A DNA stretch of 64,000 nt from Desulfobacterales bacterium (GCA_046543065.1 JBKHAE010000002.1:7144-71143); one strand, 5' to 3'; numbered from the stretch's first letter, positions 491 through 24,449 are shown. Notes: generated by a model not told the origin, from the letters alone. Program-made: numbers and translations.

Positions 491-526
491 AGAGTAAGAT
501 TAAGATTAAGAGTAAGATTAAGACGG
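491..526 (+). repeat. Hexamer tandem repeat (TAAGAG/TAAGAT)n ending in GACGG, copy 1
   Basis: agagtaagattaagattaagagtaagattaagacgg. The same motif is seen at 9629-9680, 21722-21744 and, reverse-complemented, at 44994-45010. Confidence 0.8.
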
Positions 527-557: not shown

Positions 558-3500
558 CTACAAACCGTATTCCGCCCGCTCGATCAGCTCCTTTTGAAGA
601 TCGCTGTTTAAGGTTACAAAATAGGCGTTGTAGCCGGAGATCCGCACCAGGAGGTTTCGGTAGTTTTCCGGGTGCGCCATGGCATCCTTAAGGGTATCGG
701 AAGTCACCACATTCATCTGCATCTGCATGCCGCCTAAGTCAAAATAGGTCTTCACATAGGAGAACATCCGGTCGATAATCGATTCCCGCTTATCCTCGCC
801 CCCGGGCACCACCTTGACATTAAAGGCAATATTGTTGTTCATGTGCCGCGGATTTAGGCGCGCCACATCCCGGATGTTGTCCAGCAGATTGGCCGACGCA
901 TGCGGCTCCGGGGTCAGGCCCGGAGTAAAAGGTTTGCCGGTGAGCTTTCCGGACGGCAGCGCACAGCTTAAGGTGCCGTAGATGACGTGATTTGACATGG
1001 ACCAGAACCCGGCGGTATATGGGCCGCCGCGGTAGTTTGTATGGCTGCCGTAATAATCATGGGCAAATTTTGTCACGCGCCCGGCCATTTCCACCGCCTC
1101 ATCACTGCCGGAGCCGAACAAGGGCACCTTTTTGGTGACCAGCGCATACAGGGCCGGATCATTCGCAAAGTTTTCATCCACCGCTTTTTTGAGCTCCTCA
1201 AAGCTTACCCGCTTTTCATCAAACACCAGCTTTTTAATTACCATGAGCGAATCGGTTACATCCGCCAACCCGATGCAGGCGGCCCCGGAGCTGTTATAGC
1301 GGGCGCCGCCGTGGGTCACATCAAGACCCTTTTGAATGCAGTCGCCGATCAGCGCGGAAAGCATCGGCGTGGGCCGGATGGCCTGATGGGCAATACCCAG
1401 CATGTTGTTATACTCAATGGATTGGTCGATCAAAAAGCCGAACTGATCAAAAAATGCCTGAAGAAACTGGTCAAACGTCTTGAAATCATCATTTTCCACC
1501 CGGCCGACATCCGGGCCGAGCTTCCAGTTCATCAACGGATGGCGGCCGTTGTGAAGGGCCATCTCAAGGGCTGCCACCATATTCATCATCTGAAAATTGG
1601 TGTGCCCGATATGCCGGCCGGACAATGTCGGCTCCACGCAGCCGGTGGCCGACCAGTTGCGCAGGTCCTCGGGCGTATAATTGAATTCCTCGAGCGAGGC
1701 CATAACCGCGGCATCATTATGCATGGAGGGCGTGGCCGCGGTGATGAGATTAACCTCGCAGAGCCGCTTGAGGTAGGTGTCACTGTTAATGCCGGGATGG
1801 AACCGGGCGTTGACATTGGGGTCCCGGATGGAGAGCATTTCCGTTACTTTAAGAAAAATATAGGTCATATCGCAGACCGCATCCTCCCCGTCCGGAGTCA
1901 CCCCGCCAAGCGTAATGGCCTGATCCGAGGAGCTGCCGCCGAAATACCAGTTGGCGAGATCCGGGGTGAGCGGCAAATGATCCGTGCAGCGCATGTAGAA
2001 GCAGGCCACCATTTCAATGGCATGCCGGATATAATTCCGGCGCGCCGGCTCGGTTTCCAGTGCGGCCATATCCGCCTCGAAAAAGGGCTGCAGCCATTGA
2101 TCCAATCGCCCCAGGGAGAGCCCGGCATTGGTGTTTTCCATGTGAAGCCCCACCCAGGTAATCCACATGGCATTAATGGCCTCGTCCAGGTTCCGGGCCG
2201 GCTGGGCCGGAACCTGTCGGCAGATGTCCGCCAGGCGGGTAAGCTCCGCCTTCCGCTTCGGATCAACTTCAGCCGCCGCATCCGCTTCGGCCTGCCGGGC
2301 AAGGTTTTCCCCATAGGCAATAAGTCCCTCCAGGCATAGGATCATGCCCTGCCGGGTGGCGGTCTGCGCCTCGTCCTGAGTGCCGTTGGCAAGCTCCCGC
2401 CTGATTTCTTCGATGATGCCTTTGGCGCCCATCTCTAACATTTTGGGAAAATCCGGGATGGTGTGGGATAACGCGGCCTGCTTCCAGATGAAATAAACCG
2501 CAAACCGCTCGTCAATAGCCTGGCAGAGGGGACTCTCGTAGTGGTCTCTGACCCATTCTTTGAAATTGCGGTGAATCCAGAAGGGAAACACCTCGCCGTG
2601 CAAAAGGTCCACCGTTTCCGGCGAAATATCATAGGGATTCAGGGAGCGGTGCGGTACGGTAAGCAGTTCGCCCCAGATCATGGTGCCGTGGCTGTCCGGA
2701 TAGACCACCACGCCGATTTCCCTGGTGGTCGTGGTGCCGGCGATCAGATCGTTTTTCCGGATGATCGGGGCGCGGTTTTCCATCAGGTATTTGAAGGCAT
2801 GGCCCTGCCGAAGCTCCGGTATCCAGGGGTTGCCCTTGTTATCGGTTTCAAACCCATGGGCCTTAAACCAGTCGGTTACCAGTTTGGGCCGCTCCGGGCA
2901 GACCTCGGGCGTGGCGGTGAAATGGATTTCCAGAAAATCCTTAATTCGCGGAAAATCATCAAGGCCGTATCCGGAGAGATAGGGTTCATCTAAATATTTT
3001 ACACCCGGATCAGTGCTGTCTGCCCGCATATGATAGGTGTTTCGGTTTTTAAGCCCCTCGCTTAATCCCGTGTTCGGCTCGGCCGCGGTTTTCTTTAAAT
3101 CCTTTTGGGCTGCATCCCGTTCCCTGGCCATCTGCTTTTTCTGCTTTCTGTTTAACAAAAGGGACAGGTAAAAGAAAAACAGGTTCATGTAGGACTGGTT
3201 GCCTGTGGTTCTCAAATCGCTTTTCATGAGCATGAAAATCTGCTCTGTCGGGGTGGCGCCCAAAAGTCTTCGGACCGCCGCATCGGATGAGAAAATCAGG
3301 GTCACCTCAGAGTCTTCGGGTAAGGCTTTAAGCACCGTCACCCGGCCGCCCCGGAAACGGATGGCAGTCTCCACCGACCGGCTTTCTGTTCGGATGCCCA
3401 CCGTAAAGTCAAAAAAGCCCTGTTCGGTCTTTAAATACTTTTTCAGACCGGGCCGGAAATTAAAGTTTGCGGCCACGGTACGAAGCAGGGTCTTAACCAG

Positions 3501-3572
3501 CAGATGGGTGAGCGTTTTGCCGGTTTTGGCCTCGGTCGTCAGAGGCGCGGCAGGGTCTGTCTTAAGGAGCAT
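558..3572 (-). CDS. Glycyl radical enzyme (PFL2/dehydratase-lyase-like) with a ~200-aa N-terminal SCP2-like extension
   Basis: 1004-aa ORF with a C-terminal glycyl radical motif LLVRISGYNAYFVTL and a thiyl-loop SATGCVEPTL. AGGGAG RBS lies upstream of the ATG at 3572. N-terminal residues ~20-145 have an SCP2-like pattern. Confidence 0.9.
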   Translation of the reverse strand: MLLKTDPAAPLTTEAKTGKTLTHLLVKTLLRTVAANFNFRPGLKKYLKTEQGFFDFTVGIRTESRSVETAIRFRGGRVTVLKALPEDSEVTLIFSSDAAVRRLLGATPTEQIFMLMKSDLRTTGNQSYMNLFFFYLSLLLNRKQKKQMARERDAAQKDLKKTAAEPNTGLSEGLKNRNTYHMRADSTDPGVKYLDEPYLSGYGLDDFPRIKDFLEIHFTATPEVCPERPKLVTDWFKAHGFETDNKGNPWIPELRQGHAFKYLMENRAPIIRKNDLIAGTTTTREIGVVVYPDSHGTMIWGELLTVPHRSLNPYDISPETVDLLHGEVFPFWIHRNFKEWVRDHYESPLCQAIDERFAVYFIWKQAALSHTIPDFPKMLEMGAKGIIEEIRRELANGTQDEAQTATRQGMILCLEGLIAYGENLARQAEADAAAEVDPKRKAELTRLADICRQVPAQPARNLDEAINAMWITWVGLHMENTNAGLSLGRLDQWLQPFFEADMAALETEPARRNYIRHAIEMVACFYMRCTDHLPLTPDLANWYFGGSSSDQAITLGGVTPDGEDAVCDMTYIFLKVTEMLSIRDPNVNARFHPGINSDTYLKRLCEVNLITAATPSMHNDAAVMASLEEFNYTPEDLRNWSATGCVEPTLSGRHIGHTNFQMMNMVAALEMALHNGRHPLMNWKLGPDVGRVENDDFKTFDQFLQAFFDQFGFLIDQSIEYNNMLGIAHQAIRPTPMLSALIGDCIQKGLDVTHGGARYNSSGAACIGLADVTDSLMVIKKLVFDEKRVSFEELKKAVDENFANDPALYALVTKKVPLFGSGSDEAVEMAGRVTKFAHDYYGSHTNYRGGPYTAGFWSMSNHVIYGTLSCALPSGKLTGKPFTPGLTPEPHASANLLDNIRDVARLNPRHMNNNIAFNVKVVPGGEDKRESIIDRMFSYVKTYFDLGGMQMQMNVVTSDTLKDAMAHPENYRNLLVRISGYNAYFVTLNSDLQKELIERAEYGL

Positions 3573-3599: not shown

Positions 3600-4514
3600 T
3601 TAAATGACGATGCCGGCGGTCTCAAATACCTGCCGGCATTCATCAATGACCTTGCGGTCCAGCCACTTATCCATCTCCGGCGCACGATCTTTTTCCATGG
3701 GAATCCCGATCTTTAAATTTTTCTCCTGCCACAGGGGATGATAGGAAAGGAGCCGGGCCTCGCAAACGCCGCAGGATGTTAGAAAATCCACAATCGCATG
3801 GATATTTTCCGGGGTGTCCGTAATGCCTGGGATCAGGGGGGTTCGCGGCACAACCGGAACGCCGCCGTTTCTGGCCCGGGTATGCAATACTCTGAAATTG
3901 GACAGGATGGTCTCGTTGGACACCCCGCAATACCGGGCGTGAAGCTTTGCGTCCATCAGCTTGATATCAAAGTAGATGAGATCCAGATGCGGATATAAAT
4001 GTTCATCAAATCGGGTAAGGTCAAACAAGCCGCAGGTTTCAAGCAGAATGTGGATGCCGCCCGCCTTGAGCCCGGCTGCCAGTTCGCCGGCAAACCCCGT
4101 GAACAGGGCGGGCTCGCCCCCGGAGAGCGTCACCCCGCCGCCCGAGGTGTCGTAAAATGGCTTATCCCGAAGCACCTTCGCTGCAATTTCTTCAACGCTC
4201 ATATGGGTGCCGATGCGCGTAAGCGCACCTGACGGACAGGCATCCACGCACGCAAAGCAAAGCGTGCAGACCTCGCGGTCGATAAAAAACGGGTTTTCCC
4301 TGGACAGGGCCTTTTCCGGGCACAGGTTGATGCAGGTATCGCATCCCACGCAGGTCTTGGCTTCAAACCCGATTTCCACCCCAAGACGTTTGCTCTCCGG
4401 GTTATGGCACCAAAGGCAGGAGAGCGGACAGCCCTTAAAAAATACCACCGAGCGGATGCCCGGCCCGTCATCCAGGGCATTTCCCTTGATTTCGAGTATC
4501 AGCGGCTGTTTCAA
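3600..4514 (-). CDS. Glycyl radical enzyme activating enzyme (radical SAM with two auxiliary ferredoxin-like clusters)
   Basis: CPLSCLWCHNPE is a CxxxCxxC motif near the N-terminus. It also has CVGCDTCINLCP and CTLCFACVDACP. It lies immediately upstream of, and co-oriented with, the GRE. Confidence 0.9.
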   Translation of the reverse strand: MKQPLILEIKGNALDDGPGIRSVVFFKGCPLSCLWCHNPESKRLGVEIGFEAKTCVGCDTCINLCPEKALSRENPFFIDREVCTLCFACVDACPSGALTRIGTHMSVEEIAAKVLRDKPFYDTSGGGVTLSGGEPALFTGFAGELAAGLKAGGIHILLETCGLFDLTRFDEHLYPHLDLIYFDIKLMDAKLHARYCGVSNETILSNFRVLHTRARNGGVPVVPRTPLIPGITDTPENIHAIVDFLTSCGVCEARLLSYHPLWQEKNLKIGIPMEKDRAPEMDKWLDRKVIDECRQVFETAGIVI

Positions 4515-6763: not shown

Positions 6764-7497
6764 ATACATCCGCCGCCAGGGATATCTCTTTTGAGATGCC
6801 ATGGACTGAGGTAGAAAAGGTTATCCTCAGCCGCCGAAGCACGCGGGCTTTTAAAAATGAGCCCATTCCGGACTACATGATCCGCCGGATTCTGGAAGCC
6901 GGCCGCTTTGCGCCGTCAGCCGGGAATTCCCAGCCATGGCGGTTCGCTGTGGTAAAAAACCCGGAGATTCTTGCGGCAATGGAGCAGGATGCCGTCAAAA
7001 CCTGCAAACGAATGATGTTCGTGCTCGACTATACCCGGAGCCGCATGCGGCAGCTCTTTTTAAAACCCATATCCAAATTTTTTATCCGGCTTCGGCACAA
7101 TGAACTCCATCCCGTGCCATTCGGTTTGCTGGCGGCTGTTGCAAAGGACCGGGCGCCGATCTTCCATCATGCCCCCACCCTGATTCTGCTGTTCGAAGAC
7201 AAGCGCGGGGTCTCCTCCCCGGCCACTGACAGCGGCATCTGCGGTCAGAACATGGTGCTTGCCGCCCACAGCATGGGGGCGGCCACCTGCTGGATCGGCA
7301 TGATCAAACTGCTCATGTATGACCGGAAATGGAAAAAATTCTTCGGCGTCAAATATCCCTACGAACTGAACAACTGCCTTGCCGTTGGGTGGCCGAAAGT
7401 CGCCTCCGACGGCCAGGTACCGCGGGAGGTGCAGAAAGTCGAGTGGTACGAGGGAGGCATGTCCGATCACCCGAGAATTGAAAGACAGGGGGAGTAA
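6760..7497 (+). CDS. Nitroreductase family protein
   Basis: SRRSTRAFKNEPIP...GRFAPSAGNSQPWRFAVV signature. ATGA overlap with the TetR stop. Confidence 0.8.
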   Translation: MNTSAARDISFEMPWTEVEKVILSRRSTRAFKNEPIPDYMIRRILEAGRFAPSAGNSQPWRFAVVKNPEILAAMEQDAVKTCKRMMFVLDYTRSRMRQLFLKPISKFFIRLRHNELHPVPFGLLAAVAKDRAPIFHHAPTLILLFEDKRGVSSPATDSGICGQNMVLAAHSMGAATCWIGMIKLLMYDRKWKKFFGVKYPYELNNCLAVGWPKVASDGQVPREVQKVEWYEGGMSDHPRIERQGE

Positions 7498-7498
7498 A

Positions 7499-9634
7499 AT
7501 GGCAGACGCAAACGTCACCCGGTGGACGAGAATTCCCGATTACAATAACCCGCAGGATATGCAGACCGGTCTGCTTTTGTTTGACAATGAAAAATGCAAG
7601 CAATGCGGTATCTGCTCATTCATCTGCCCTGCCCGCTCCATTCAGATCGAAAAGGGGCCGGGTGCCTGGCGCAGCGGCCTGCCGCGGCTGATTTATTCCT
7701 ATCCCGGCATCACCGACTGCATTGCCTGCGGCTGCTGTGTGACAGCATGCCCGGAGGAGGCTATTTCCATCAAATGCCCGTTTAACCCGGGATATTTCTA
7801 CCAGCGCCTGACCCAGACCCAGGATCTGACTTTTCCCAAACAATATGATGCGCACCTGATCCCCCCTGTTGGTGAAACTTCCAATGAAAAGGCACAGGAA
7901 AGCGCAGTAAAGCCCGGTGGCGGGGAAACGCCAAAGACGGATGCGCGAAAATGGAAATTGCGCCGGCTGCAGCTATTGCGCGCAGCCCTTACCGGGGCTG
8001 TTCGCATGACGGCCGATGATATCCGCGAGGGGCGATTTATTAGAAACATTTCCGCCAAGTGGCGAAAGGAACCCACCGATCTGTCCTGGGCGGAACTTCT
8101 GGAATCCCGGGCCCGGCAGGTGCCGGAGAAAAAATTTCTTTTATATGAGGACGAAACATTCACCTACCGGCAGATGAATGAGAATGCCAACCGGGTGGCC
8201 AATTTCCTGCTGGCCAACGGCGGGGGCAAGGGAATGGGGCTGGGTATTTATATGAAAAACTCCCCCCGGTTCCTTGATTTGTTTTTCGGCGCCCAGAAAA
8301 TCGGGATGTACCTGGTGCCAATGAACCCGGAGCTTAAGGGGGAAGGCCTGGCCTACCTGATCAACCACAGTGATATCCAGATGCTGGCCGCAGATGCGGA
8401 ACTCATCTCTTCGGTTGAAAACATACCCGAACCCCTTCATAAAGTCTCCAAATTTATTGTCGATGATGTTGAAAAAGAGGCTGCCGGCTTTGCCGTGCCC
8501 GATCATTATATTTCATTAAGCCAGGCCTATGGCGTGACTCCGGACAATCCGGGCGTCGGCTACAACCCGGACGACATGTGTCTGATCATTTATACCTCAG
8601 GGACCACCGGACGGCCCAAGGGGGTTGTATATCGCTATAAAACATCTTCTGTGCGCCTTCTCATGTTTTATGCCCAGGTGCTGCTTAAAGAAGATGACGT
8701 CTATTATACCTGCCTCCCCCTGTGCCACGGCAATGCCCTCTTGATCACCACCACCATGTCCCTGGCGCGGAAAGCCACGGTCGCGCTTTCCAGAAAATTC
8801 TCCGCCAGCCGGTTCTGGGATCAGATCCGGGCCTATGACGCCACCATTTTCAATACCATCGGCTCCATCATCCCGATTCTCATGAAGCAGCCGGAAAAAG
8901 AAACCGAGCGGCACAACAACGTCCGCTGCGTATTTTCCGCTGCGTGCCCGGCGGATATGTGGGAGCCGTTTGAAAAGCGATTCGGGGTGACCCTCTATGA
9001 AGGCTACGGTGCAGTGGACGGCGGCGGCAAGGGCATTATGAACCTGGGTACGGCGCCCGTGGGATCGCTGGGCAAGCCGAACCGGGCGGGCGACATAAAA
9101 ATCGTGGATGACAGCGGTGCGGAAGTGCCGACCGGAGAGACCGGCGAATTGCTGTTCAAGGTTAAAACCGGCGGCAGCCGCGTGGAATATTACAAAAACG
9201 AAGAAGCTTCCATGGAAAAAGCAAAAGATGGGTGGCTCTATACCGGCGACCTGGTCCGGCAGGATGTGGAGGGATTCGTCTATTTCGTGGGCAGAAACAC
9301 CGAATCCATGCGTAAATCAGGTGAAAATGTGTCCGCCTACGAAGTCGAACACGTGATTATGAAGCATCCGGCTGTTGAAGACGTCGCCGTCTATGCGGTG
9401 CCTTCGGAAATGAGCGAGGATGAAATCATGGCCGCCGTGAAGCTGGTAGACGGACACACGCTTTCCGGCAGGGATTTGAGGGATTTCTTGTCCCAGAAAC
9501 TTGCAAAATACGCGATTCCCCGGTACGTGCGCTTTGTTGAAGAATTTCCCAAAACCACCTCCCACCGGATCATCAAGCGCGAACTTGAAGCCGAAGGGGT
9601 CACCGCGGACACCTATGATGCAAATAAAGAGTAA
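7499..9634 (+). CDS. Fusion protein: N-terminal 2x[4Fe-4S] ferredoxin domain + FATP/very-long-chain-type AMP-dependent acyl-CoA ligase
   Basis: CKQCGICSFICP and CIACGCCVTACP motifs lie in the first ~130 aa. These are followed by the ANL motifs YTSGTTGRPKG, GYGAVDGGG and DGWLYTGDL...VGRNTESMRKSGENVSAYEVE. The ATG at 7499 is preceded by GGGGGAG. Confidence 0.8.
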   Translation: MADANVTRWTRIPDYNNPQDMQTGLLLFDNEKCKQCGICSFICPARSIQIEKGPGAWRSGLPRLIYSYPGITDCIACGCCVTACPEEAISIKCPFNPGYFYQRLTQTQDLTFPKQYDAHLIPPVGETSNEKAQESAVKPGGGETPKTDARKWKLRRLQLLRAALTGAVRMTADDIREGRFIRNISAKWRKEPTDLSWAELLESRARQVPEKKFLLYEDETFTYRQMNENANRVANFLLANGGGKGMGLGIYMKNSPRFLDLFFGAQKIGMYLVPMNPELKGEGLAYLINHSDIQMLAADAELISSVENIPEPLHKVSKFIVDDVEKEAAGFAVPDHYISLSQAYGVTPDNPGVGYNPDDMCLIIYTSGTTGRPKGVVYRYKTSSVRLLMFYAQVLLKEDDVYYTCLPLCHGNALLITTTMSLARKATVALSRKFSASRFWDQIRAYDATIFNTIGSIIPILMKQPEKETERHNNVRCVFSAACPADMWEPFEKRFGVTLYEGYGAVDGGGKGIMNLGTAPVGSLGKPNRAGDIKIVDDSGAEVPTGETGELLFKVKTGGSRVEYYKNEEASMEKAKDGWLYTGDLVRQDVEGFVYFVGRNTESMRKSGENVSAYEVEHVIMKHPAVEDVAVYAVPSEMSEDEIMAAVKLVDGHTLSGRDLRDFLSQKLAKYAIPRYVRFVEEFPKTTSHRIIKRELEAEGVTADTYDANKE

Positions 9635-9691: not shown

Positions 9692-11194
9692 ATGATTTCA
9701 AGAAGCGAAATCAAGCAGTATTCGGCCAAGCCGCCTTTATTTGAAGACAGCATCTGCAGTCTCCCCTCTATTCCCAGGCAGCCCAAAACCATGGGCAGAG
9801 AAACCAAAAAAATTATTGCCCTGGCCAGAAAATTCAATCAGGAGGTCGTCCGGCCCTATGCCCTGGAGCTTGATTTAAAGATGCAGGCATCGCCGGATTT
9901 TATTCCCTGGGATTTTGTGGAGCAGGCCAATGAGTGGGGGTTTTATACGGGGTGGATTCCGAAAATTTTCGGCGGCAAAGGGTGGAACATGCCCTCCATG
10001 GCCTACTTTATTGAGGAAATCGCATCAGAGTGCCTGGCCATGGCGAATCTGATCGGCGTTCATTATCTTGGCGTCTCCACCCTCACCGCCACGGGAAACG
10101 TTCGCTTGATTAATAAAATCTGCCGGGATGTCGCCAATGGCGAAAAAACCCATAGTCCCTGTTTGGTGACCCTTGCCATTACCGAACCCGGTGCCGGAAC
10201 GGATGTAGAAGAAATTGACCTGGTGGACAAGGCAAATATTGCCTGCCATGCAGAAAGGGTGGCCGGCGGCTACAACATCAACGGCACCAAGGTATTTATT
10301 TCAAACGGCCACATCTCCACCTGGCACATGGTCATCGCGTATTCGGATTTGGCCAAACCCTCTGAAAACACGGTGGTCCTGGCGGTAAAAACCGGCGACA
10401 AGGGATTTTCCTTCGGCCGCATGGAACGGAAAATGGGCCAGAAGGGATGTCCGGCCAGCGAACTGATATTCAAGGACTGCTTTGTGCCCGACGAATATGT
10501 CTGCTTTGACCCGGATCAGGTTCGCTTCCTTAAGCGTCCGGTCCGGGAATCGGCCATGCAGATGATCGATTACGTGGTCGCGGTCACCCGGGCCGGTGTG
10601 GGGGCTTTCGGTACGGGCGCGGCACGGGCCGCCTACGCCGAGGCTTTGAAATTTGCCTCTGAAACGACTGTCGGCGGCAAACTGCTCATCAATCATGAAT
10701 GGGCCCAGTGCATGCTGGCCGAAATGCTTAAAAATGTTATGATCGCCCGCCTGACCTATGTTGAGGCCAATTACGCCAATGGCCTGTACGGCGCCTTCCG
10801 GGAACTTCAGAGAAAGCCCCTGTATTACTACTACAAGCTGATGCCCGCCAAATTCTTTGACAAGGTAATTGCGCCAATAACGGAAAAACCATTTATGACA
10901 AAGACCTTTCGGAAAATCCAGCTGGACGGCCAAACCGACGAAGAGATTCATCGAACCTCCGGCTGGGGGTCACTCAGCAAATTCTGCGCCACCGATATAG
11001 GAATTCGTAACTGCCAAATGGCGATAGAACTTATGGGCCATCACGGGCTGCGCCACAGCAGCCGGGTGGAAAAAATGCTGCGGGATGCAAAGCTTCTCCA
11101 GATCTATGAAGGAACCAATCAGCTCAACCGGCTAAACCTTTTCAAATGCTTGATTGCCAAAGATTTTCCGCAAGCGGTCGTATTTGCCGAATAA
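9692..11194 (+). CDS. Acyl-CoA dehydrogenase, large (catalytic) subunit with a C-terminal-domain insertion
   Basis: ACAD motifs TEPGAGTD and GTKVFISNG are present. The catalytic-base motif LLQIYEGTNQ is also present. 500 aa, about 100 aa longer than typical ACADs. Confidence 0.8.
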   Translation: MISRSEIKQYSAKPPLFEDSICSLPSIPRQPKTMGRETKKIIALARKFNQEVVRPYALELDLKMQASPDFIPWDFVEQANEWGFYTGWIPKIFGGKGWNMPSMAYFIEEIASECLAMANLIGVHYLGVSTLTATGNVRLINKICRDVANGEKTHSPCLVTLAITEPGAGTDVEEIDLVDKANIACHAERVAGGYNINGTKVFISNGHISTWHMVIAYSDLAKPSENTVVLAVKTGDKGFSFGRMERKMGQKGCPASELIFKDCFVPDEYVCFDPDQVRFLKRPVRESAMQMIDYVVAVTRAGVGAFGTGAARAAYAEALKFASETTVGGKLLINHEWAQCMLAEMLKNVMIARLTYVEANYANGLYGAFRELQRKPLYYYYKLMPAKFFDKVIAPITEKPFMTKTFRKIQLDGQTDEEIHRTSGWGSLSKFCATDIGIRNCQMAIELMGHHGLRHSSRVEKMLRDAKLLQIYEGTNQLNRLNLFKCLIAKDFPQAVVFAE

Positions 11195-11209: not shown

Positions 11210-12328
11210 ATGATTGCAGGCTCGGACAGGGAGTTAAAGATGCTGGACAAGGCATCCGCAGAATTTGCCAGAAAGGAACTCGCCCCGGCGCGGCAGGACA
11301 ATGACGCCTATCCCTTCGCCCCTTTTTTTGACGGAGTATTAAAAAAAGCCTATGATCTGGATTTTTTCCACATCGTCCTGCCGGAAACCTGCAGCGGGGT
11401 TGGGCAGGGAATCACCGCCCTTTGCGTGATTTTATACAATATCTGCCGGGAAGACAGCAGCCTGGGCGGCATTGTGTTTACAAATGCCGCCTGCCAGGAA
11501 ATGCTTCTTGCCGCCGGGGCTGAAAATCTGTTGACCGCCATTACCAAAACCCCTGAGACGGCAGCAGATTGCTTGATTGCGGCGCCCATATTCAACAACC
11601 CCGTCGACATTGCCAACACTGCGGATGCTGTCATGAAAAACGGGGATTATCTGCTTTCCGGCTGCGTTGAATATGTGGTTATCGGCAATATCGCCCGCCA
11701 TGCGTTGATCCCCGCAAAAATTGAGGGCTCAGCGGACTTTTCATTCTTTCTGGTCGATTTGTCCGGCAAGGGCGTCTCGATTTCCGAACCGGTTCACAGC
11801 CTGGGGCTTCATGCGTGCCCGGCGGTGGATATCACCATGAACAGTGCGCCCGGCACCCCGCTTGGAGATACAGGGGAAGGCCGCATCTGTTTTGAGAAAA
11901 TGAGCGACCGGATGTCTGCGGCGGCGGCGGCCATGTCTGCCGGCATCATGGCCGGCGCGTTCAAAGAGGCTCTTGAATACAGCCGGGGCCGGTTTCAGGG
12001 CGGCCGGGAAATCGTCAACTGGTCGGAAGTGCGTATGCTCCTGGCTGAAATGGCCGTCAAAGTCAAAACTGCGGAGGCCATGCTTGCAAGTGTCTGCCGG
12101 GCCGTTGACACCAATGAAGCCGGCTGGCAGGATTACGCGCGGGCTTCGGCGATCGAGATCCAGAGAAATGCCTGCGATTTGACCACGGACGGCATTCAGA
12201 TCCTGGGCGGCGTCGGCTACATGAAGGATTTCGGCCAGGAAAAACGCTTCCGGGACGCCAAGCATATCCAGGCGCTTCTGGGAATGGTGCCCATGAAAAA
12301 GCTTCGGCTTATTAAAAGATTGATTTAG
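11210..12328 (+). CDS. Acyl-CoA dehydrogenase family protein, probable non-catalytic partner subunit
   Basis: ACAD-like length and C-terminal helices (GGVGYMKDFGQEKRFRDAK). The position of the YEGT catalytic Glu reads IQALLGM. It starts 15 nt downstream of the large subunit. Confidence 0.65.
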   Translation: MIAGSDRELKMLDKASAEFARKELAPARQDNDAYPFAPFFDGVLKKAYDLDFFHIVLPETCSGVGQGITALCVILYNICREDSSLGGIVFTNAACQEMLLAAGAENLLTAITKTPETAADCLIAAPIFNNPVDIANTADAVMKNGDYLLSGCVEYVVIGNIARHALIPAKIEGSADFSFFLVDLSGKGVSISEPVHSLGLHACPAVDITMNSAPGTPLGDTGEGRICFEKMSDRMSAAAAAMSAGIMAGAFKEALEYSRGRFQGGREIVNWSEVRMLLAEMAVKVKTAEAMLASVCRAVDTNEAGWQDYARASAIEIQRNACDLTTDGIQILGGVGYMKDFGQEKRFRDAKHIQALLGMVPMKKLRLIKRLI

Positions 12329-21752: not shown

Positions 21753-24449
21753 TTACAGCGTCAGTGAGACAATCATCGTGCCGGGTTCACCGGGTTCGCT
21801 TCTTATCTTAAAACCAAATGCCTTACAAAGCTTCAGCATGGGCCGGTTTTCGCCCAAAACTTCCCCATAAATTTCGCCGACCCCCTGATCTCTGGCGTAA
21901 TCGATAATGCGGCGCATGAGCATGGGCCCCAGGCCCATTCCGGTCATGTCATGGCGGATGAGGATTGCAAATTCCGCCCGTTCTTTGTCCGGATCCGCGG
22001 CATATCGCACAATCCCGTAAAGACTGAATTCCTCCGATACAACCGGATCGCAGAGGACCAGGGCCATCTCCCGGTCATAGTCAATCTGGGTCAGGCGTGC
22101 CGCCATTTTATGGCTCATGGTTTTCATTGAGTGCAGAAACCGGAAACGGATCTCATCCAGGGAAAGCGCGGAAAAAAGCGTTTGAAAGGCCGGTTCATCC
22201 TCCGGTCGGATGGGACGAATCAAAAGTTTCTTGCCGCCGGGCAGGTTGAGGGTTTCCTCGAGTTCATTGGGATATGGACAGATCACGAATCGCTCTGAAG
22301 CCGGGATCTGCGATTTGACAATCCTGATGCGGGCATCCAATGCCATCACCCCCTGCTCGTCCGCGATCAGGGGATTGATATCCAGTTCGGCGATGTCTGC
22401 CATATCTGTGATCAGCTGCGATATTTTGACAAGTGTCAATTCAATGCTTTCCAAATCGGCGGGCGGTTTACCATAATGGCCTTCCAGATGTCGGTAAATC
22501 CGCGTGCGGCTCATAAGCTCCCTGGCAAGATTCATATTAAGGGGCGGCAGGCCAATGGCTTTGTCCTGGATCACCTCTACAGCGGTACCCCCCTGGCCGA
22601 ACAGGATCACCGGGCCGAACTGGCGATCATCGCTTATGCCGATAATCAGTTCCCTGGCATTGGGGCGCTGCACCATCTCCTGCACGGTAAATCCGGAGAT
22701 GGCCGCTCCAGGCTTTAGGGCACGGATGCGCTCTTTCATCACAGTCGCCGTCTTTTTAACCAACTCCGGCGAGGCGAGATTCAACGCCACGCCGCCCGCA
22801 TTTGACTTATGGACGATATCCGGGGATAAAATCTTCAACGCCACCAATCCGCCCAATTCGGCAGCAATCTCCGAGGCCTGTTCGGGTGTCTCGGCTTCGT
22901 AGGTCCGGACCACCGGAATTTGATAACAGGCCAACACCGCTTTTGCCTCGATTTCCGTCAGCCACGGCCGATCCTCAGACCACGCCTTATCGATAATCCC
23001 GAAAACCTTATCTTTTTCCGGCGCAAAGACCTCAGGGATGTTTGGCGGGGTCTCCATTAACATTTCCTGGCTGCGCCGGTAGCGCACAATCTGCATAAAT
23101 CCGCGCACTGCCTCGTCCGGGGTCCCATAAGTGGGAATCCGGTTTTCGGCAAATATCTTCCGGGCCTCGCGGGCGACATCCATCCCCAGCCATGATGTAA
23201 ATACGCCGCGGGAGGCGGCTTTAGAGCCGCTTTCCTTCAATGTCTCGACGACTGTGCGGGCCGCTTCGGTGCTTGAAGCTACAGCCGTCGGGCAGTTTAA
23301 AATGAGCAGGGCATCGACATGTTTATCCTCAAGCAGCACTGTTAGCGCATCCCCATAGCGATCCGGCGGTGCATCACCGATAATATCCACCGGATTATTA
23401 TGCGACCAGGTGGGCGGCAGCACGTGATTCAATCGGTCGATGGTGGCCGGAGACAATTCGGCCAGACGTCCTTTTTTATCGATTAAGACATCAGTTGCCA
23501 TAACCCCCACACCGCCGCCGTTGGTGAGGATGGCGAGGCGGTCGCCGGAAAACCGGCGGGCTTTGCCCAGGGTTTCAACGGAATCAAAAAGGGCCTGCAT
23601 ATCTGTCACCCGAAGGATTCCCGCCCGCTGGAACGCCGTATTATAGACGTCATCTGCTCCTGCCAGCGCGCCAGTATGGGAAGCCGCGGCCTTTGCACTC
23701 TCGGCATGGCGCCCGGCCTTAACCACGACCACAGGCTTCATCCGGGCCGCGGCCCGGGCGGCGGACATAAATTTTCGGGTATGGGTGACCGCTTCTATAT
23801 AGAGGAGGATGGCCCTGGTGGTAAAATCGGTGGCAAGGTAATCAAGCATATCTCCGAAATCCACATCCGCCATGTCCCCCACGGAGACAAAGTGGGAAAA
23901 ACCGATGCCCTTTGAGGTGGCCCAGTCCAGGACGGATGTTTGAATTGCGCCCGATTGGGCGACAAATGCGATATCGCCTTTGAGCGGATGGACGTGGCCG
24001 AAGGTGGCGTTAAGGCCCCGTCCGGGCACCATGATCCCCAGACAGTTGGGCCCCACAATGCGCAGCAGATGATGACCTGCAGATTCCAGCATTCGGGCGG
24101 CCAGATGTCTTCCCTGGTCGCTTTCGCCCTCGCCAAACCCGGCGGTGATGACCACAGCGGATCGGGCGCCACGGCGGCCCAGTTTTTCAATCAGATCCGG
24201 CACCGTATCCGGGGGCGTGGCGATCACGGCGAGATCCGGCGCTTCCGGCAGATTGTCCACACTCGGGTAGGCCCGGCGCCCTTCGATTTCCTTGTACCTG
24301 GGGCTTACAGGAAAAATATCGCCTTCAAAGCCGCCGCTTATCAAGTTATGGGCAAGCACCGCGCCTATGGTGCCGGGCTTTTGGCTGGCGCCCACCAATG
24401 CGACCGAGTTCGGGTTAAACATGATATCCAGGTTGCGGATGGTCATCAC
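21753..24449 (-). CDS. Pat-like bifunctional protein: ADP-forming acyl-CoA synthetase-like (CoA-binding/ATP-grasp) N-terminal region + C-terminal GNAT acetyltransferase
   Basis: 898 aa. The N-terminus VALVGASQKPGTIG... is a CoA-binding region, followed by succinyl-CoA-synthetase-like and ATP-grasp segments. The C-terminal ~190 aa have a GNAT pattern (HDMTGMGLGPMLMRRIIDYA). Confidence 0.8.
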   Translation of the reverse strand: MMTIRNLDIMFNPNSVALVGASQKPGTIGAVLAHNLISGGFEGDIFPVSPRYKEIEGRRAYPSVDNLPEAPDLAVIATPPDTVPDLIEKLGRRGARSAVVITAGFGEGESDQGRHLAARMLESAGHHLLRIVGPNCLGIMVPGRGLNATFGHVHPLKGDIAFVAQSGAIQTSVLDWATSKGIGFSHFVSVGDMADVDFGDMLDYLATDFTTRAILLYIEAVTHTRKFMSAARAAARMKPVVVVKAGRHAESAKAAASHTGALAGADDVYNTAFQRAGILRVTDMQALFDSVETLGKARRFSGDRLAILTNGGGVGVMATDVLIDKKGRLAELSPATIDRLNHVLPPTWSHNNPVDIIGDAPPDRYGDALTVLLEDKHVDALLILNCPTAVASSTEAARTVVETLKESGSKAASRGVFTSWLGMDVAREARKIFAENRIPTYGTPDEAVRGFMQIVRYRRSQEMLMETPPNIPEVFAPEKDKVFGIIDKAWSEDRPWLTEIEAKAVLACYQIPVVRTYEAETPEQASEIAAELGGLVALKILSPDIVHKSNAGGVALNLASPELVKKTATVMKERIRALKPGAAISGFTVQEMVQRPNARELIIGISDDRQFGPVILFGQGGTAVEVIQDKAIGLPPLNMNLARELMSRTRIYRHLEGHYGKPPADLESIELTLVKISQLITDMADIAELDINPLIADEQGVMALDARIRIVKSQIPASERFVICPYPNELEETLNLPGGKKLLIRPIRPEDEPAFQTLFSALSLDEIRFRFLHSMKTMSHKMAARLTQIDYDREMALVLCDPVVSEEFSLYGIVRYAADPDKERAEFAILIRHDMTGMGLGPMLMRRIIDYARDQGVGEIYGEVLGENRPMLKLCKAFGFKIRSEPGEPGTMIVSLTL

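Follow-up and report, generated by a model that had tools for sequence, protein, structure and literature searches.

The glycyl radical enzymes (GREs) were surveyed in a review of June 2026 that covers seven classes and their accessory subunits, contains no SCP2 or lipid-binding module, and notes that whole clades are still unannotated (PMC13450708). The eliminases and isomerases described there act on small, water-soluble molecules, and the only hydrophobic substrates are hydrocarbons, which are handled by multisubunit succinate synthases (PMC13450708). Here we describe a gene from a Desulfobacterales bacterium (GCA_046543065.1) carried on a 64,000-nucleotide stretch of DNA (JBKHAE010000002.1:7144-71143), referred to throughout as the window. 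The gene lies on the minus strand (558..3572) and encodes a protein of 1004 residues in which a domain of the SCP2 fold is joined to the N-terminus of an oxygen-sensitive GRE. The fusion marks a widespread, uncharacterised family of GREs from anaerobes, which probably acts on a greasy, hydroxyl-bearing substrate. The superfamily is known and the reaction class probably is too; the SCP2 accessory module and the substrate class that it implies are new to GREs. An earlier note on this DNA had stated that no characterised GRE was known to have this architecture, and that statement still stands, as the equivalog models described below score far under their cut-offs, the review holds no comparable enzyme, and full-text and accession searches of the literature returned no description of SCP2 or lipid-binding modules on a GRE.

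The protein consists of an N-terminal domain and a C-terminal catalytic core joined by a basic helix and a tether. Its open reading frame (ORF) closes with a stop codon at 558-560, and a GGGAGA ribosome-binding (Shine-Dalgarno) site lies 7 nt 5' of the ATG. The first 19 residues (3516..3572, minus strand, as are all features of the gene) form a disordered and little-conserved tail, with a predicted local distance difference test score (pLDDT) below 50 for residues 1-17/18 in the AlphaFold2 (AF2) model. The SCP2-fold domain then extends over residues 20-140 (3153..3515). Its last helix reads YMNLFFFYLSLLL and is directly followed by a Lys/Arg-rich stretch; this basic Lys/Arg/Gln-rich helix (residues 141-162) prolongs the last SCP2 helix in the model before the tether begins (helix and tether together, 2952..3152). 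The tether closes with the family motif DPGVKYLDEPYLSGYGLDDF (residues 188-207), which is kept in distant members. In the full-length AF2 model (pLDDT 85, predicted template modelling score, pTM, 0.90) a single helix runs from residue 126 to 162, and the coil that follows has a pLDDT of 77-94. These two indicators, pTM and linker pLDDT, suggest that the domain docks on the core in a defined way.

The catalytic core (residues 208-1004; 561..2951) has the ten-stranded barrel fold of the GREs, as judged by Foldseek and by phmmer searches of the PDB. Pfam assigns residues 218-866 to the PFL-like family (PF02901, E 8.7e-166) and residues 883-986 to the Gly_radical family (PF01228, E 9e-23). The Cys loop TGCVEP (residues 643-648; 1629..1646) and the glycyl radical motif RISGYNAYF (residues 977-985; 618..644, with the radical site Gly980 at 633-635) both lie within the 1004-residue ORF, whose translation is exactly the one quoted in the earlier note; the core is complete, as that note had claimed. 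The same note had put the protein at about 150-200 residues longer than typical GREs, in good agreement with the solved enzymes of 776-850 residues, whose phmmer alignments to the window protein start only at about residue 206-250 and leave some 200 additional N-terminal residues. A GRE-activating radical S-adenosylmethionine (SAM) enzyme of 304 residues is encoded 27 bp upstream (3600..4514, minus strand); it scores 275.7 bits against the TIGR02494 cut-off of 174, and Pfam finds Radical_SAM together with two ferredoxin-type cluster motifs. With the barrel, the glycyl domain, both motifs and a cognate activase all present, the sequence identifies a PFL-like GRE in which radical formation is predicted.

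The N-terminal domain was modelled separately from residues 1-161 with a six-sequence alignment, giving a mean pLDDT of 78 (the same region reaches about 90 in the full-length model). The model begins with two helices (residues 21-39 and 41-47), continues with four strands (56-62, 68-74, 77-81 and 90-94) and two further helices (97-105 and 108-116), and ends with a strand (120-124) and the final helix (126-138). This predicted order of elements is that of the SCP2 alpha/beta topology. When the model was compared with the PDB by Foldseek, ranks 1-46 were occupied exclusively by SCP2-fold proteins at a probability of 1.00, and unrelated folds began at rank 47 with E > 0.03. The best match is UbiJ-SCP2 (6h6p, E 1.1e-5, template modelling (TM) score, normalised to the target, 0.66), and the Archaeoglobus fulgidus SCP2 protein AF1534 gives a TM (target) of 0.69-0.71. 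Other matches are the C-terminal SCP2-like domains of the alkylsulfatases SdsA1, Pisa1 and YjcS (E 4e-5 to 1e-3), sterol carrier proteins of yeast, insect, rabbit and human, and MFE-2. A Foldseek search of the PDB with the full-length model found no solved GRE that extends over this domain. By its predicted structure the domain belongs to the SCP2 fold class, as a divergent member, and the resemblance to the SCP2 pattern that the earlier note had seen by eye is borne out by topology and structural comparison.

At the level of sequence the window copy is silent. The earlier note had expected three Pfam families on the protein; PF02901 and PF01228 were found, whereas PF02036 (SCP2) gave no match at E <= 1 on residues 1-199 or 1-146. 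Apart from a chance BAT match, no Pfam or NCBIfam family was found at E <= 1 on residues 1-199, and a profile of six close homologues returned chance matches only when run against PDB sequences. The searches indicate that the window copy lies below Pfam sensitivity. When 18 diverse N-terminal domains of the family were scanned, nine matched PF02036 at E <= 1, weakly (best E 1.1e-4), and no other family recurred among the 18. With the 18-sequence family profile, the three best matches in the PDB are rabbit and human SCP2 (E 0.02-0.04), aligned in register over the β-core and a conserved G-N turn. An exhaustive search of 1.84 billion representatives with the domain profile recovered 165 proteins. 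All of the longer ones that were scanned are PFL-like GREs; the short, weaker matches include standalone proteins of about 150 residues. One of these, P0247 (profile E 1.6e-6), scores above the Pfam gathering threshold for SCP2 in its own right and so provides a transitive link to SCP2, and a standalone homologue from Desulfosarcina ovata is labelled 'SCP2 domain-containing protein' in UniRef. A first, word-indexed search had given five fragments and made the domain appear rare, an impression that the full-length and exhaustive profile searches overturned.

The earlier note had asked whether the fusion is conserved in related genomes, and it proves to be conserved well beyond them. Searching with the full-length protein gave more than 120 clusters (formed at 90% identity), which match it at 65-93% identity over 96-100% coverage; their members are 987-1009 residues long, save one of 962. 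Their sources include Desulfobacterales, Desulfosalsimonadaceae and Desulfatibacillum aliphaticivorans, and metagenome-assembled genomes (MAGs) of Syntrophales, Acidobacteriota, Actinomycetota, Leptospiraceae and Spirochaetota. Cultured carriers include Desulfatibacillum alkenivorans AK-01 (ACL02533.1 / B8FHW6) and DSM 16219. An exact look-up in public assemblies gave no record of the window protein; the nearest N-terminal domain to that of the window is from a Desulfosalsimonadaceae MAG (94% identity). In an alignment of 65 sampled members the SCP2 region is found in every one. Mean identity to the window protein in this set is 25% for the tail, 58% for residues 20-140, 36% for the linker and 75% for the core, and 23 positions of the domain, mostly hydrophobic, are conserved in at least 90% of the members. 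Since it occurs in 65/65 members at 58% mean identity, the SCP2 region is not an artefact of ORF calling. Fused members as distant as 33-46% overall identity still keep the domain. It is also borne by partial proteins from the Asgard archaea Freyarchaeota, Promethearchaeota and Lokiarchaeota (P0274, P0276, P0278, P0286 and P0289), which are probably the N-termini of PflD-like GREs annotated as Ass/Bss in Asgard genomes; the Freyarchaeota copy (L025) shares 27% identity with the D. ovata standalone protein (tblastn, E 3e-17).

Two distant members, P0184 (1007 residues) and P0221 (984 residues), keep the SCP2-like domain and have neither the catalytic Cys (GAAAP and GDGGP, respectively, in place of GCVEP) nor the RxSGY glycyl motif (RVGACCA and RSAGAGA). 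Both could be paralogues without catalytic activity, or else variants of an aminoacyl-radical type.

In D. ovata the two parts of the protein are encoded by separate genes. Two genomes (AP021879.1 and AP021876.1; L024 7528-12449 and L029 3528-8449) share the gene order GRE (817 residues), SCP2-like protein (146 residues), activase and DUF6765. The 146-residue protein (BBO90334.1) matches the N-terminal domain profile at E 9e-17. Its partner GRE aligns to the window core from residue 194, just past the SCP2 module and linker, with 38% identity, and is thus nearer to that core than any characterised GRE (<= 29%). The module is homologous in the two arrangements, but the split GRE has GCVEL for GCVEPT and is without the GHTN motif of the fused family, and its operon has the additional DUF6765 gene. 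As the same module is either fused to the GRE or encoded separately in its operon, the split variant is independent evidence, of the Rosetta-stone kind, that both parts work together. Three further candidates for standalone genes (P0003, P0298 and P0287) were rejected, as they are pieces of fused genes from long-read contigs with frameshifts. Among the loci seen, DUF6765 (PF20551), a family with no assigned function, is encoded in the split variant only.

Working together need not mean that the module carries a ligand. It could instead be a structural cap, an element for solubility or oligomerization, or a peripheral membrane anchor of an eliminase for small molecules. Together with the Lys/Arg-rich helix that follows, the last SCP2 helix could rest on the surface of a membrane, the linker pLDDT suggests rigid docking and not a mobile carrier, and P0184 and P0221 retain the domain after the loss of the catalytic Cys and the glycyl motif. 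A purely structural part would also have precedents within the superfamily, where N-terminal helices make the dimer interface and the gamma subunits, which cover a hydrophobic patch of the BSS and HPAD alpha subunits, are thought to serve mainly for solubility (PMC13450708). Against such a role, the matched SCP2-like modules of enzymes such as SdsA1/Pisa1 and MFE-2 serve hydrophobic substrates, and the mostly hydrophobic conserved positions fit a lipid cavity; both arguments are weak, the second because these positions would equally fit any folded core. UbiJ, likewise among the matches, carries isoprenoid quinone intermediates. On balance we consider a module without any ligand-carrying role unlikely, if still worth bearing in mind.

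The nature of the core was approached through its relatives of solved structure. The phmmer search of the PDB places A. fulgidus PFL2 first (2f3o, E 6e-113), followed by propanediol dehydratase (PD, 1e-110), CutC (1e-105) and glycerol dehydratase (GD, 1e-102); the eliminases as a group match over the whole core with E 1e-90 to 1e-113. Likewise, Foldseek aligns the full-length model to PD, GD, HypD, PFL2 and CutC with a TM (target) of 0.90-0.92 at 24-29% identity, and core identity to any solved GRE does not exceed 29%. The best-scoring NCBIfam models are the PFL2/glycerol dehydratase subfamily (TIGR01774, 491.8 bits against a cut-off of 678.2) and the eliminase equivalogs, with HypD, CutC, PflD-type and HpsG at 358-396 against cut-offs of 1000-1109. 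None of these cut-offs is reached, and HpfG, IAD, HPAD and PFL score lower still, also below their cut-offs.

In the active site, alignment to GD and PD equates Cys645 with C433 of GD and C438 of PD, and Glu647 with E435 and E440; both residues are conserved. A CXE motif is kept by all GRE 1,2-eliminases and isomerases, the Glu of which hydrogen bonds to and deprotonates the substrate hydroxyl (PMC13450708), and in the window protein it takes the form C645-V646-E647. His370 (2463..2465) is the counterpart of PD His166 (alignment to 5i2a) and of GD His164, the residue that protonates the leaving hydroxyl (PMC13450708). It is conserved as S-H in ten of the 13 proteins compared (nine of 12 fused members and the D. 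ovata split GRE). Three pocket residues differ. Ala483-Gly484 (2121..2126) stand at the positions of PD His283-Ser284 (residue-level alignment to 5i2a), which we take to correspond to His281-Ser282 of the GD structure, and Asn659 (1596..1598), invariant across the close family, stands at that of GD Asp447 (alignment to 1r8w and 5i2a). The family has signatures of its own in the loop FGGSSSDQ (residues 544-551) and the GHTN motif. From these alignments the core looks like that of an eliminase or isomerase for a carbinol whose neighbouring carbon bears a leaving group, and the pocket replacements point to a substrate that is different from, and bulkier than, glycerol or propanediol.

A lipid-binding fold on a GRE also brings to mind the X-succinate synthases (XSS), such as benzylsuccinate synthase (BSS) and (1-methylalkyl)succinate synthase (MASS). 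The enzyme would then activate alkanes or other hydrocarbons, the SCP2 domain being a hydrocarbon-binding or channel-gating part comparable with the beta and gamma subunits of BSS and MASS. This would extend an unproven proposal of alkane activation made for A. fulgidus PflD/PFL2 and for the Asgard 'Ass/Bss' homologues. The function of PFL2, the nearest PDB sequence match, is debated between glycerol dehydratase and MASS, and the XSS beta subunits gate a hydrophobic channel (PMC13450708). The PflD-like GREs of Hermodarchaeota are annotated as Ass/Bss (PMC8163825). The carriers of the fusion include the alkane and alkene degraders of Desulfatibacillum, partial Asgard proteins bear the domain, and the separate SCP2 gene of D. 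ovata resembles that of a small accessory subunit. The core itself speaks for a different chemistry, as MasD (E 9e-58) and TutD (E 6e-51) are far weaker and partial matches, aligned only from about residue 402 (the C-terminal 600 residues), and their TM (target) of 0.77-0.82 falls short of the 0.90-0.92 of the eliminases, while the Glu of the CXE motif and the His of the dehydratases are both kept. MAGs of Leptospiraceae, Acidobacteriota and Spirochaetota carry the family as well. The methylmalonyl-CoA-type genes for processing a succinate adduct are not a conserved feature of the loci read, and no conserved candidates for accessory subunits were found around the gene among ORFs of at least 90 residues (see below). 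Taken together, we think hydrocarbon activation of this kind very unlikely. The CXE motif argues instead for a hydroxyl-bearing amphiphile over a plain hydrocarbon as the predicted substrate.

The reading that we favour, and consider reasonably probable, is that of a GRE of the eliminase type, in which the SCP2 module picks up a hydrophobic or amphiphilic substrate bearing a hydroxyl group. The analysis shows the fold of the domain, its fusion to the GRE and how that fusion is conserved, along with the split-gene variant and the catalytic motifs; ligand binding by the module, the type of reaction and the nature of the substrate are what we infer, with the lipid role taken from the fold alone. 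In such an enzyme the activase would install a radical on Gly980, which would pass to Cys645 as a thiyl radical. The thiyl radical would abstract a hydrogen from the carbinol carbon of the substrate, Glu647 would deprotonate the hydroxyl to give a ketyl radical, and His370 would protonate the leaving group on the neighbouring carbon, which then departs. The outcome would be a 1,2-elimination or an isomerization yielding an aldehyde or a ketone. The SCP2 module, held by the basic helix and the conserved tether, would most probably bind the hydrophobic portion of a substrate that is poorly soluble or resides in the membrane, and offer the polar end with the hydroxyl group to the buried active site. 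A similar mode of action is assumed for UbiJ and for the SCP2-like domains of alkylsulfatases.

The genes around the fusion were surveyed at 23 loci, with ORFs of at least 90 residues considered. The activase adjoins the GRE in 19 of them. A TetR regulator (TetR_N and TetR_C_33) lies near the GRE in 11 loci by clustering and in 13 by tblastn. A short-chain dehydrogenase (SDR) gene abuts the GRE in six loci, in two positions and from two SDR subfamilies: it follows the GRE in Desulfatibacillum (L001 and L002) and lies between activase and GRE in L013, L014, L023 and L028. At a seventh locus (L012) it is about 6 kb away. L028 additionally has genes for an iron-type alcohol dehydrogenase and an aldehyde:ferredoxin oxidoreductase immediately upstream, and together with the SDR adjacency this fits a carbonyl product. 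The SDR, present in many genomes, may act on that product or may make the alcohol, and the TetR repressor may sense the substrate, giving a small self-contained operon. Beyond activase, TetR and SDR no gene recurs across the 23 loci, a survey that does not cover ORFs of about 60-80 residues, the size range of the XSS beta and gamma subunits. In the window 27 bp separate the activase from the GRE, and downstream of the GRE there is no plausible ORF, which further disfavours an XSS-like complex. Microcompartment targeting was rejected as a function of the N-terminus, which is a folded SCP2 domain and not a short amphipathic peptide, and no shell genes are found among the conserved neighbours. 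The ORF-free tail of the window contains a hexamer tandem repeat (AGATTA x 5.5, 491..523), about 35 nt past the GRE stop codon.

The divergent genes of the window encode an SCPx-type thiolase, a TetR regulator, a nitroreductase, a ferredoxin-fused acyl-CoA synthetase, two acyl-CoA dehydrogenases and a hydrolase. Given that SCP2 proteins also bind acyl-CoAs, these neighbours could be taken to indicate an acyl-CoA or another coenzyme A (CoA) thioester as substrate, tied to the β-oxidation-type genes. Near other copies there are genes for acyl-CoA dehydrogenases, an enoyl-CoA hydratase, a thioesterase, a thiolase and an IcmF-like mutase. No neighbour of this sort is conserved across the loci, however, with the acyl-CoA dehydrogenase cluster present in three of the 23 loci, and no CoA ester is among the substrates of the GRE 1,2-eliminases and isomerases in the review (PMC13450708). 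A CoA-ester substrate is in our estimation highly doubtful.

Several of these neighbours and one more distant gene have features of their own. The acyl-CoA synthetase (7379..9634, plus strand) has an unusual architecture, in which a ferredoxin domain with two [4Fe-4S] clusters (residues ~67-133) precedes the AMP-binding region; the TTG start given for it overlaps with the nitroreductase gene upstream, and the true start is probably farther downstream. The acyl-CoA dehydrogenase genes lie in tandem (9692..11194 and 11210..12328, both plus strand), and in the product of the first (500 residues) a long insertion divides the C-terminal domain into two Acyl-CoA_dh_1 stretches. Elsewhere in the window, the gene at 21753..24449 (minus strand) encodes a protein of 898 residues with an ADP-forming acetyl-CoA synthetase-like region (CoA-binding and ATP-grasp) and a C-terminal GNAT domain, likely an ordinary-looking protein acetyltransferase of the Pat type.

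A number of points weigh against the favoured assignment of an eliminase for hydroxyl-bearing amphiphiles. An SCP2 fold is by itself no proof of lipid binding, and the domain could be structural; the window copy, moreover, is missed by Pfam and NCBIfam as described above. Because three pocket residues are unlike those of the diol dehydratases, it is not certain that the enzyme dehydrates a vicinal diol, and a Glu in the Cys loop is likewise found in the GRE decarboxylases. With nothing conserved beyond activase, TetR and SDR, there is no pathway context that points to a substrate. The acyl-CoA genes beside the window GRE give none either, as they are not conserved at the other loci and such genes are common in Desulfobacterota genomes.

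A bolder form of the proposal may be formulated, in which these proteins are the first lipid-processing GREs: O2-independent radical C-O lyases or dehydratases for glycerol-based or vicinal-diol lipids, with the SCP2 module extracting the lipid from the membrane. One such reaction would be cleavage of the ether bond of a 1-O-alkylglycerol via a C2 ketyl radical to give a fatty alcohol and hydroxyacetone; another would be the dehydration of long-chain 1,2-diols to aldehydes. If this were true, the family would be an anaerobic counterpart of the O2-dependent alkylglycerol monooxygenase and provide a means of turning over ether lipids in anoxic sediments, which may extend to Asgard archaea provided that the partial Asgard proteins are the N-termini of fused GREs. 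So specific a function is at present speculative and, in our view, rather improbable.

The broader proposal of an eliminase for greasy, hydroxyl-bearing substrates has consequences of its own. With a lipid-carrier fold covalently attached to a core of the eliminase type, and conserved there, the likely substrates for this O2-free radical chemistry are amphiphilic alcohols or lipids. Members of the family abound in sulfate reducers, syntrophs and other anaerobes of sediments, and may contribute to the anaerobic turnover of lipids or hydrocarbon derivatives. For an eliminase-type enzyme, the labels 'formate acetyltransferase' and 'Ass/Bss-like' that family members bear would be wrong. The cultured carriers, D. 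alkenivorans AK-01 with the fused gene and D. ovata with the split one, make the family testable.

Of the known systems, the B12-independent GD of Clostridium butyricum (1R8W) and the PD of Roseburia inulinivorans (5I2A/5I2G) are among the closest to the window GRE. They share its barrel fold (TM target 0.91-0.92), the glycyl motif, the CXE Cys loop, the His (H164/H166) and an adjacent activase with two ferredoxin motifs. The identity is only 27-29%, however, PD His283-Ser284 and GD Asp447 are not kept, and the ~200 extra N-terminal residues are present in the window GRE alone. Unlike GD and PD, the family has no microcompartment or aldehyde dehydrogenase operon among its conserved neighbours. 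A. fulgidus PFL2/PflD (2F3O), the best PDB match by sequence, shares the S-H motif and the GC of the Cys loop at ~28% identity, but at 776 residues is without the SCP2 domain. PFL2 has featured in discussions of long-chain substrates, and its function is debated (PMC13450708).

The module has parallels of a different kind. UbiJ/UbiT (6H6N-6H6P), the top structural match, is similarly an SCP2 module that passes hydrophobic intermediates to enzymes, but it shares 15-20% identity with the window domain and is a separate accessory protein of ubiquinone biosynthesis; no quinone biosynthesis genes are conserved around the SCP2-GRE at the 23 loci. The beta, gamma and delta subunits of BSS and MASS and the gamma subunit of HPAD are, like the SCP2 module, extra polypeptides attached to a GRE alpha subunit, and the beta subunits of BSS and MASS gate the hydrophobic substrate channel (PMC13450708). 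These subunits are small Fe-S or rubredoxin-like proteins and not SCP2 folds, whereas the SCP2 module is usually fused to the N-terminus. In the alkylsulfatases SdsA1, Pisa1 and YjcS (2CFU, 2YHE and 4PDX), as in the window protein, an SCP2-fold module is covalently attached to an enzyme, there one for amphiphilic substrates, and the module recruits the substrate. In those enzymes the SCP2-like domain is C-terminal and sits on a hydrolase of the metallo-β-lactamase type, whereas in the window protein it is N-terminal and is joined to a radical enzyme.

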